A stretch of DNA of 60,383 nt, counting the filler, from Collodictyon triciliatum (taxonomy: Eukaryota): NCBI GenBank assembly GCA_043381765.1. It is 4 parts of 4 records of this genome, joined end to end, with 100 filler letters (N's around TTAATTAATTAA, not from the genome) between each part and the next. Parts side by side here need not be neighbours in the genome. Positions count along the whole stretch, not along the records: positions 30,233 to 45,283 come from JBHJMP010001741.1; 3 more parts are not named here. One strand, 5' to 3'. This document shows positions 40,770 to 42,795 of the stretch, in pieces. The position numbers and the translations under genes were made by a program. Below the pieces are notes generated by a model that saw only the letters and a program-made list of their open reading frames with translations, made no database searches and was not told the DNA's origin. How positions within the stretch are numbered: the first letter of the stretch is position 1; every line of letters begins with the position of its first letter.

Positions 40770-40890
40770 TAGGAGTAGCACACCATCTTCCGATTGGTAA
40801 ACCTGGTTCGCCAGTATCCAACGTCAATCCACTTTTTCAAAAAGGTTGTGTAGTGGCGAAGGCTGCCAGGAAAGACCCGACAGTCGATTT
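40770..40890 (-). ncRNA. Candidate omegaRNA scaffold of the Fanzor element
   Basis: GC-richer segment overlapping and following the Fanzor 3' end, with hairpin potential (CCACT..CTTTTTGAAAAAGTGG; TTGG..CTGG-CGAA-CCAG..CCAA). It ends abruptly at A-rich flanking sequence near 40768. Position is as expected for TnpB/Fanzor omegaRNAs. Confidence 0.35.
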
Positions 40891-42795
40891 TTTAAAGCGA
40901 GGTGTAGGCATATTTTGAAGAATGGAAAAACTTTGTTGATTATGCTTTTAGCGCTTTTAAAATCCCTTGTCAAGAATACACTTTGGTTGCTTTCTGAGCG
41001 ATTGCAATTTTTACATGAGACACCTATACGCCTTTTTTGAATTTCCTTTCAGTTTCATATATTCCAGTTCTTTTTCGCAGTTACAGCACATCTTGGAGGT
41101 TCTAAATTCATCTACACTAACTGTTTCAAAATGTTTGGATAGTATTTTTCGTAATCCTCTTCCGATTGCTGGCATAAAATGGTTTCATCAAAGATTCTCT
41201 GCTCCAGTCTCCATACGCCAGTACAACATCCTTGCCAAATATCTTTTCGATTCGGTCCATAAACAACTGTTCACTTCTTTTTGTATTAACATACCGTCTC
41301 CATCTCATCTTTCGAAAAGTTACTTTTTCATAAAATCTGGATAATTCTATCCGGTATCTTGATTTCATAGATACATATTTTCGAAATTTTTCATAATCGA
41401 CGGTGCATGAATTATGTTTGCTCAGGTCTGTCTCTAAATCGATGAAAGATACTCTTAATGTCTCAAACCGCTGATTCTCTTCAATAGTCATGTGACCAAA
41501 AGAGACAGCACTTTGTAAATCTTTTTTTTTTTTATTCACGAGACACTTTGTAAATCTGTTACCATGCATATCCCTGAAGCATTGTACTTTTCTTTCTTTT
41601 TCTTTTTTTCTCGCGCAAGAGTATTTTGTGATTTTTAAGAGGTTTGCTATCATGTCTTCTTTGGTGTGTCGTGTAATGTAATTTCTTACCTGCCTCATCC
41701 ACCATGTAAACCAAACTAAACTTGTCTGCATCCACTCCGACTATTTTTTTGTCGCTAATAAAAATAATTGCTCTTCGGAAAGTTCATATATAAGCATATT
41801 CTTGGGGTTTTTTGATTATATTTGGATTTTTGAATTTGAAATACCTTTCTCTTCAAAGAATAAAGACACCATCAAGCCGTCCGTTTGTATCATGTATTTA
41901 AAATTGTAGTATCTTTGATGATAGACCCTCTTCTTCATTTCAAAGGACTTATCCCATAGGGTCTCTTTGCATCCTGATATATCCTTTAGTAATAATGTTT
42001 TTCCAGTTAATACTAATAATTCTATCAAACATGCAGTATCTAGATTAATATGACATGGTATATTGATAGTTCTTATAGAGATTGGTTGAAACAGTTTAGC
42101 TCCAATGTCCTCAAAAATGCGATTCATGTAAATCAGACATGGAATGTACTTATTTGGATTAACTTTGACATCATACTCAATACTTTTAACAATATCGCTG
42201 GGAATGATACGATGCAAATGCGTTGTAGCCCATTCTTTGTATTGTTCCGGTATTTCGAGTTTCTTGAAGATAGCTTTTTTTTTTAACTTTCGTAATATTC
42301 TCATCTTTAGGAACTGTTTGATTTATAAAGCGCAGTAACCTCGTTACAAAATGTTCCTTAATGTTATGATGATAAGCTGTTAACACTTGCTTCACCAAGT
42401 ACGGTAATACATGAGAGTGCAACGAACAATAAGCGTTCTTCTCGGGACAGAAGGAATAGAAAATCATTGAGATAAAAAGTCATCATGTCTTCTCTCATAT
42501 CTTGTAGTTTTTTTTTTTTAATCTTGCGTGTCTATCTTGTGAAACTATTTCGACTGTCTTTAAAGCGTACAAAAAAACTTTTCATCTATTGTTGGGGTTG
42601 TTGTGATTTCAATATGCAACATCTTGCAAACAGATAAGTGTCGGTAACCAAATTATGACACAATAAAACCGTATCGTTGATTTTGTAATAGTCATCCGCA
42701 TTCTTTACAATTGACTTTAGAGATGCTTTCACATTTCGATGGTTTGGTTTTACAGACTTTATATTCTCACACTCAAGACGTTTTCTTTTCTTCAT
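40824..42795 (-). pseudogene. Fanzor1 (TnpB-derived RuvC RNA-guided endonuclease), frameshifted
   Basis: Stitched translation: MKKRKR..VKASLKSIV..INDTV..NLVTDTYLF; LPYL..NIKEHF..LRFIN; YDVKVNP..YMN..KLFQPISIR..IP.HI.LDT; FKYMIQTDG..VSLFF; RuvC-I IVGVD (D 41730-41732); FRKMRWRRY; YGDWSR..MKHFMP..GLRK; RuvC-II VDEFRTSK (E 41107-41109); Zn finger CCNC..CKNC; RuvC-III LTRD (D 40962-40964). At least 7 frame breaks. Confidence 0.88.

Follow-up and report, generated by a model that had tools for sequence, protein, structure and literature searches.

A very probable Fanzor1 pseudogene in the draft genome of Collodictyon triciliatum and its relatives on giant-virus-labelled and aquatic metagenome contigs

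Fanzor1 proteins are the descendants, in eukaryotes and giant viruses, of the bacterial TnpB proteins. Here we describe the remains of one Fanzor1 gene in a stretch of DNA of 60,383 nucleotides from Collodictyon triciliatum (GenBank assembly GCA_043381765.1), which consists of four parts of four records joined by filler letters and is referred to throughout as the window; the part carrying the gene, positions 30,233 to 45,283, derives from record JBHJMP010001741.1. The locus is very probably a single, full-length but dead Fanzor1 copy, a pseudogene, and is most likely the decayed remnant of a non-autonomous insertion that belonged to a multi-copy family of transposons. Thousands of Fanzor1 genes, partial and dead copies included, have already been recorded in eukaryotes and giant viruses (PMC10530073 and PMC10432273; these and the other reports are cited here for particular passages of each). 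The relic is an ordinary member of a well-described family and not a new system.

Among the described systems, the element SPu-1 of Spizellomyces punctatus, which encodes the Fanzor1 protein SpuFz1 (PDB 8gkh), is like the window unit in carrying just one open reading frame (ORF) on about 2.0-2.1 kb, and its family is represented in the genome by partial and full copies (PMC10432273). SPu-1 is bounded by clear inverted repeats of 30-33 nt (PMC3627910, PMC10432273), whereas none are demonstrable for the window copy, and in SpuFz1 a 75-nt omegaRNA scaffold, located beyond the stop codon, spans the 3' repeat while the guide is drawn from the flank (PMC10432273). The window copy further differs from SpuFz1 in being dead, with 13 disabling lesions, and in having its stop codon within about 60 nt of the end of the related sequence, and the similarity between the two is remote and apparent only at the profile level. 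A second group comprises the Mariner-Fanzor1 elements of algal giant viruses, including PGv-1 (PMC3627910). The relatives of the window copy resemble these elements in being bounded by repeats and, in 46 of 160 loci, in encoding a DDE_3 protein, PGv-1 being likened by its description; in contrast, the window copy itself carries no transposase, has ends unlike the repeat consensus TTACACCTTTnnnCATTTAAAACGCC of these relatives and shows 43-45% protein identity to them. More distantly, Fanzor2 (for example ApmFz2) and TnpB (for example ISDra2) have in common with the locus the RuvC D/E/D residues, the C4 zinc ribbon and the D...[TS][TS]xx-C4-...RD motif (PMC3627910), and the relocated glutamate is common to Fanzor1 and Fanzor2 (PMC10530073). 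Unlike Fanzor2 and TnpB, however, the window copy carries the long N-terminal REC-like half of the Fanzor1 type.

The assignment was examined with a profile hidden Markov model (HMM), A1, built from 11 intact homologs. When searched against the six-frame fragments of the window, A1 matched eight of 1871, all on the minus strand within 42810-40827 and with E-values ranging from 3.5e-55 to 0.017, a result well outside what chance would give. The matches follow one another along the profile (positions 1-61, 90-126, 117-176, 176-330, 362-416, 403-518, 506-561 and 560-593), and the one row out of order, at positions 76-123 in fragment 41740-41129, was non-significant (1.3 bits, domain E 7.9). Consistently, tblastn searches with six homologs gave matches in the window that were confined to 40846-42795. 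A single feature encompasses these results:

42795-40837, minus strand: Fanzor1 pseudogene, full-length remnant (frameshift-aware alignment, collinear profile HMM matches, tblastn and translation)

The remnant ends, on translation of its tail, at a TGA codon (40839-40837) and extends over residues 1-642 of a 648-aa homolog, P0001. An earlier sequence-only reading of this DNA had stitched several minus-strand ORFs into one protein, assigned it to Fanzor1 and given its span as 40824-42795; the alignment to profile A1 and the collinear order of the motifs bear this out, and the upper end of the span agrees, but the remnant stops at 40837, slightly inside 40824.

Profile A1 aligned with the three solved Fanzor1 structures over nearly their full length: PpFz1 (6.2e-76), SpuFz1 (2.1e-72, profile positions 3-606) and GtFz1 (2e-58). 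LaTranC came next in the PDB, at 0.029, and chains of Fanzor2 and TnpB were absent at E <= 10. P0001 alone matched the same three proteins (GtFz1 2.1e-28, PpFz1 2.7e-24 and SpuFz1 3.7e-23). On these comparisons the assignment to Fanzor1 is well supported. A Pfam scan of P0001 and of its N-terminal relative P0002, with a library used without PF26935, yielded no families, and a domain scan of six neighbouring ORFs recognised no IS607-type TnpA serine recombinase.

The motifs named in the sequence-only reading were all recovered by translation on the minus strand, where it had placed them, and they are distributed over all three minus-strand frames:

42795-42778, minus strand: start codon and basic MKKRKR sequence, resembling a nuclear localisation signal (NLS) (translation)
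41887-41876, minus strand: QTDG, upstream of RuvC-I (translation)
41741-41724, minus strand: VGVDAD, RuvC-I strand, catalytic Asp codon 41732-41730 (translation)
41212-41201, minus strand: GDWS, including a glycine (G521) that is invariant in A1 and retained in the window (translation)
41112-41092, minus strand: DEFRTSK, relocated catalytic Glu codon 41109-41107, then the [TS][TS] pair (translation)
41088-41004, minus strand: C4 zinc ribbon (TNB domain), CCNC at 41088-41077 and CKNC at 41015-41004, split by a frameshift at 41016
40970-40962, minus strand: TRD, RuvC-III, catalytic Asp codon 40964-40962 (translation)

The QTDG sequence lies in a part that we take to be the WED domain; T312 and G314 are invariant in the alignment underlying A1 and D313 is nearly so, and the window retains all three. 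At the N-terminus, at least four K/R residues occur within the first ten residues in 148 of 160 related loci. N-terminal NLSs of Fanzors have been reported as functional (PMC10530073) and, by analogy, the basic N-terminus would direct nuclear entry in intact members.

The catalytic residues of SpuFz1, D383, E541 and D606 (PMC11423790), correspond to residues 777, 935 and 1000 of the 8gkh chain, where numbering is that of SpuFz1 plus 394, and they fall on the A1 profile columns DPG, idEfrtS and nRD, equivalent to D364, E555 and D604 of P0001. The RuvC-I aspartate, the glutamate of DEFRTSK and the RuvC-III aspartate of the window align with them in that order, and the RuvC D/E/D triad is therefore retained at the three codons given above. 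As had been remarked, the usual DPG reads DAD: the invariant Pro-Gly is replaced by Ala-Asp (P365A, G366D). Related copies in four sequencing runs, described below, have a Gly codon at 41725, and the Asp of the window is private to it. Both G521 and E555 of P0001, 34 residues apart, are invariant in A1, and the window keeps them in GDWS and DEFRTSK, respectively. The RuvC-II region of Fanzors has been described as rearranged, the canonical Glu having given way to Pro or Gly while another Glu, some 45 residues further on, serves as the alternative (PMC10530073), and G500/E536 of SPu-1-1p have been given as a Fanzor1-conserved pair (PMC3627910). Read together with these accounts, the glycine of GDWS would occupy the canonical RuvC-II position, from which the glutamate has been lost in Fanzors. 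The Bao-Jurka motif for TnpB and Fanzor proteins, D-X(125,275)-[TS][TS]-X-X-[C4 zinc finger]-X(5,50)-RD (PMC3627910), is also present in the read-through of the window, in which an X was placed at each break, with 211 residues from D to [TS][TS] and 12 from the zinc finger to RD. In total, the window retains 48 of the 53 invariant and 47 of the 51 nearly invariant columns of A1, the changes at invariant residues being, in addition to those of the Pro-Gly pair, N144H, N606K and N610S.

Despite this conservation of motifs the reading frame is broken. Frameshift-aware protein-to-DNA alignment against P0001, the closest intact homolog, gave 386 identities over 626 positions (62%), several multi-codon insertions and deletions, and the following lesions:

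~42603, 42571, 42506, 42429, 42296, 41758, 41615, 41511, 41182, 41016 and 40910, minus strand: 11 frameshifts (alignment against P0001)
41818-41816, minus strand: in-frame TAA stop (alignment, translation)
41538-41536, minus strand: in-frame TGA stop, within an insertion relative to P0001 (alignment, translation)

Lesion counts vary with the reference protein; more distant references gave nine shifts and six stops (P0003) or six shifts and seven stops (the ORF of locus L001), and the total over the three references is 13-15. The locus is a Fanzor1 member in the form of a pseudogene and does not represent a working gene, and the proposal of a decayed copy with at least seven frame breaks was correct and, with regard to their number, conservative. 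Given the frameshifts, stops, indels and the loss of Pro-Gly, the window copy is no longer able to encode a Fanzor1 protein.

Relatives of the copy are abundant. A word-indexed search with a 168-aa fragment recovered six longer proteins, P0001 among them, all with the precomputed family PF26935. Of the 1.84 billion representative proteins searched with a 204-aa fragment, 940 matched at E <= 1e-3 and 104 did so at E <= 1e-10. The closest known sequences are P0001, an unnamed metagenomic protein in a cluster of three, and the N-terminal fragments P0002 and P0159, which carry the MKKRKR start and all of the motifs found in the window; P0001 is 62% identical to the window copy at full length but, unlike it, intact. 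The next nearest protein to P0001 is 46% identical, and a viral contig scan for the DNA of P0001 itself yielded no relative among its 36 pattern matches. Pattern scans for the wider group confirmed relatives in at least 386 of 597 candidate metagenome contig stretches and in at least 252 of 578 IMG/VR viral contig stretches. Many of the viral contig names contain "GVMAG", which presumably denotes giant-virus bins.

From each of the two scans 80 loci were kept, and these 160 related loci were analysed together. ORFs of 590-660 aa occur in 153 of them, and in 103 the gene is bracketed by exact inverted arms of at least 19 nt with the consensus TTACACCTTTnnnCATTTAAAACGCC. The elements so delimited are 2213-5283 bp long (median 2403) and 65 of the 103 measure less than 2.7 kb, which is too short for a transposase; a Fanzor-only derivative is therefore plausible for the window copy as well. 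In 46 of the loci there is also a homolog of a protein of 346 aa in which a DDE_3 domain (PF13358, 1.3e-13) and, just under the Pfam cutoff, HTH_28 (E 2.9e-5) were matched; judged by these domains, it is a Tc1/mariner/IS630-type transposase. In loci L001-L003 it is placed upstream of the Fanzor gene and divergent from it. Loci L001-L003 and L081-L083 are elements of about 3.3 kb with exact inverted repeats of 29-33 nt, a Fanzor1 ORF and an opposite-strand DDE_3 ORF of about 343-346 aa, although the transposase of L003 is split into pieces, and elements of this type on different contigs share 73-96% DNA identity. The intact relatives have about 620-650 residues, with a basic N-terminus, WED and REC parts, a split RuvC with a displaced Glu and a C4 zinc ribbon.

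A FastTree phylogeny of 84 rows was computed; besides the window read-through it included 71 proteins from the database, each 560-800 aa long, and one representative of each of 12 clusters formed by the 153 locus ORFs. The window copy, P0001 and P0158 group together with a support of 100, within a clade of 28 rows (support 99) which contains all 12 locus clusters. Apart from the window copy, members of this lineage are known from giant-virus-labelled or aquatic metagenome contigs, where they take the form of elements with terminal inverted repeats, some of them encoding a Tc1/mariner-type transposase. The suggestion that the locus could define an uncharacterised family was overstated, since the copy falls, in the tree and in the database matches, within a large clade of ordinary Fanzor1 genes.

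Copies related to that in the window were encountered in four sequencing runs, X1-X4, whose contigs were aligned to positions 40700-42900 at a likeness of at least 80%. Runs X1 and X4, which bear single-organism labels, contain 357 and 363 such contigs, whose likeness is 80-99+%, and a single position is covered by as many as 21 and 24 different ones, respectively; X2, a freshwater metagenome, contains 168 and X3, a subsurface metagenome, 66. Cover by the related copies is continuous over the gene, collapses above about 42845 and fades at about 40835-40780, and in all four runs the limits of the related sequence lie some 50 nt upstream of the start codon and no more than about 60 nt past the stop. 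This pattern of contig cover points to a repeat unit of about 2 kb that is present in multiple copies. Some X1 and X4 contigs join across internal deletions of the element of 35-256 nt, for example from 40883 to 41074 in both runs; shortened derivatives of the element thus exist among them, none of the size of a miniature inverted-repeat transposable element (MITE). No RNA runs were listed among the sequencing runs matched to the stretch.

The ends of the element, its mobilisation and its guide RNA were then considered for the window copy itself. The claim that the copy is without a transposase is upheld, in that tblastn with the transposase of the relatives gave no trace of DDE_3 in the window (best E 4.9). 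Two features can be listed at the ends:

42812-42830, paired with 40834-40852, strand unspecified: weak candidate terminal inverted repeat arm, 15/19 complementary
40836-40780, minus strand: 3' non-coding tail, where by analogy an omegaRNA scaffold site would be expected (cover fading; fold and profile null)

Apart from the former, the inferred ends show no inverted pair. MITE-like copies sought through the 11-nt core of this pair were rejected, as the core is present six times in the window against 6.4 expected, and a by-eye resemblance of the window flanks to the repeat of the relatives was not supported by nhmmer with a profile of 190 distinct arms from the 103 loci. For the tail, matches to a 15-nt hairpin were found in 107 viral contig stretches, none of which encodes a Fanzor, and were discarded as chance matches.

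In the 103 loci with clear repeats, the distance from stop codon to right end has a median of 81 nt. L007, L009, L016 and 31 other loci, aligned from the stop to the right end with short flanks (alignment A2), show a strongly conserved non-coding 3' stretch which resembles the omegaRNA layout of SpuFz1. It includes a hairpin, GTAGG...CCTAC, with a compensatory variant in four to five sequences, and a pairing of an internal TTACAC with the terminal GGTGTAA of the inverted repeat. The consensus fold is weak (-3.67 kcal/mol), with compensatory changes in 4 of 13 pairs, and we regard this stretch, as a lead only, as a candidate omegaRNA scaffold of the giant-virus and metagenome relatives.

Several observations weigh against the view of the locus as a dead Fanzor1 insertion of a multi-copy transposon family. 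Pfam applied to the window fragments alone produced a single sub-threshold match, of PF07282 (Cas12f1-like_TNB) to the zinc-ribbon fragment (E 6e-4, below its cutoff). There is one copy in the window, and the multi-copy status derives from runs whose organism may differ from that of the window; moreover, no public run contained at least half of the words of the stretch, and the individual frameshifts are as read in the assembly, three of them at long homopolymers. The tree is midpoint-rooted and was drawn without named Fanzor1a-d, Fanzor2 and TnpB references, and the position of the transposase-bearing group as sister is supported at only 86%. At the ends, the sole candidate repeat is weak, with four mismatches in 19, and the terminal repeat profile of the relatives (consensus TTACACCTTTnnnCATTTAAAACGCC) gave at the locus a best E of 5 in the wrong orientation and only chance-level matches elsewhere. 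Finally, the fold of 40765-40900 was no better than that of shuffled sequences (z = -0.88), and a profile of the 3' non-coding region of the relatives (34 sequences) yielded no match at the locus and a best E of 2.7 elsewhere. Divergence or decay could hide an omegaRNA at this copy. The description of the locus as one of an RNA-guided nuclease consequently holds for the protein remnant, from which alone the label derives, but is not borne out by any omegaRNA-like structure or profile match.

In intact members, by homology and as described for SpuFz1 in the cited papers, an omegaRNA originating at the element's 3' end would be bound by the protein and would guide double-strand cleavage, dependent on a short target-adjacent motif (TAM), by the RuvC D/E/D residues, and such cleavage may help the carrier transposon to persist. 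Mobilisation of the insertion in the window was presumably in trans, through a transposase whose gene lies at another site. As a discovery it matters little, given how widely Fanzor1 genes have been catalogued; it provides a clean, well-delimited host-genome relic of a lineage found otherwise mainly on giant-virus-labelled contigs. The viral link of the lineage, which we infer, and the relic itself accord with an earlier proposal in which viruses carried Fanzors from one eukaryote to another (PMC3627910). The relic also points to P0001 as an intact natural relative, on a branch at most 46% identical to other proteins of the collection and, judged by sequence, a candidate compact nuclease.

A more elaborate version would have the window copy, P0001 and P0002 constitute a distinct, unstudied Fanzor1 sub-lineage, at most 46% identical to others among 5.8 billion clustered proteins, which jumped from giant-virus mariner-type elements into the genome of a freshwater or subsurface protist and multiplied there into numerous copies of an unusually compact unit of about 2 kb, with the stop near its end and the guide RNA largely within the coding sequence. 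We consider this unlikely; if it were true, intact members such as P0001 would be active nucleases with a new omegaRNA layout.

Alternatively, the copy could have been a passenger within endogenised giant-virus DNA, having decayed together with the virus and not as an insertion of a host-resident transposon family. Virus-integrated Fanzor1 elements have been described in host contigs (PMC3627910), and the contigs behind all 12 locus clusters of that 28-row clade are either viral ones of IMG/VR or from aquatic metagenomes, many of them having GVMAG names. The GC content of the element, 0.338, is also well below the 0.504 of the adjoining gene, but it is close to the 0.311 of the upstream flank. 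Furthermore, no recognisable viral genes adjoin the relic, its flanks being made up of low-complexity, AT-rich DNA and of genes that look host-like and apparently contain introns, and the ends of the related sequence near the gene in four runs fit a repeat unit of about 2 kb better than a larger viral block. Many diverged copies are present in X1 and X4. An origin within endogenised virus therefore seems very improbable.

Another question is whether the gene is intact in the organism and its breaks are assembly or sequencing errors, such as homopolymer miscalls. The sequence-only reading had placed several of the breaks at homopolymer runs, and this applies to some of them: three of the 11 frameshifts lie at most 12 nt from runs of 7-11 and two lie beside 5-nt runs, whereas six are near no run of five or more. 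The window is a draft with ten runs of N and very long homopolymers, and the retention of the catalytic triad and of 48 of 53 invariant columns would also suit an intact gene. Discounting the homopolymer-adjacent shifts, however, leaves six shifts, two nonsense codons and several multi-codon indels, as well as the loss of Pro-Gly, and two further ORFs in this DNA (3312 and 1818 nt) remain uninterrupted although they contain eight and 13 runs of at least five. A 208-nt contig from run X3 (41649-41856, one mismatch and no gap) repeats both the TAA stop and the 41758 shift, its independence from the assembly being uncertain. Among the related copies, loose ends or indels occur at or near 42431, 42295, 41519-41522, 41181 and 41015, which correspond to five frameshift sites, and the extra base at 41181 is missing from several related contigs. 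Because at least six frameshifts stand away from homopolymers we regard the pseudogene as real, and we attach very little weight to an intact gene obscured by errors.

That the locus is instead a Fanzor2 or a prokaryotic TnpB, for example from bacterial contamination or an IS607-type element, has practically nothing to recommend it beyond the weak match to PF07282, a domain common to TnpB, Cas12f and both Fanzor types, given that A1 matches significantly only Fanzor1 structures, that the long N-terminal half aligns with Fanzor1, that NCBIfam, which is built for prokaryotic proteins, recognised no families in two intact homologs and that the flanks are eukaryote-like.

The pseudogene, most likely a decayed transposon insertion, is solitary and lies in AT-rich intergenic DNA. 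The window as a whole has the appearance of an AT-rich, eukaryote-like draft (GC 0.358), with long homopolymers, microsatellites and genes with apparent introns, and its ten runs of N are assembly gaps, one of which (43766-43775) is situated just 5' of the relic. Self-blastn of the element within the window matched the element alone and, together with the repeat-core count, revealed no ghost or MITE-like Fanzor fragments there. Over the whole window, Rfam gave no matches at the gathering threshold and there were no tRNAs.

Directly downstream of the relic is an ORF on the minus strand (39849-40679, up to 276 aa, GC 0.504) which contains several hydrophobic segments, its Pfam matches being only of the low-complexity type. 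It probably represents a host gene for a membrane protein, with the relic located in its upstream intergenic DNA. Further away, a plus-strand ORF (36063-39374) of 1103 aa is unbroken and has a GC content above that of its surroundings; Pfam gave no match for it at E <= 0.01. The ESM Atlas clusters closest to it, as judged by language-model features, are bacterial families like arabinofuranosidases or glycoside hydrolases, at 0.82-0.84 and below the 0.9 level, and as a lead only the gene may have come from bacteria into its eukaryotic surroundings. The gene beside the relic is flanked by pure A/T tracts of about 60 nt at 40600-40660 and 39640-39710, and the window is rich in tracts of the (GA)n and (AAT)n type.

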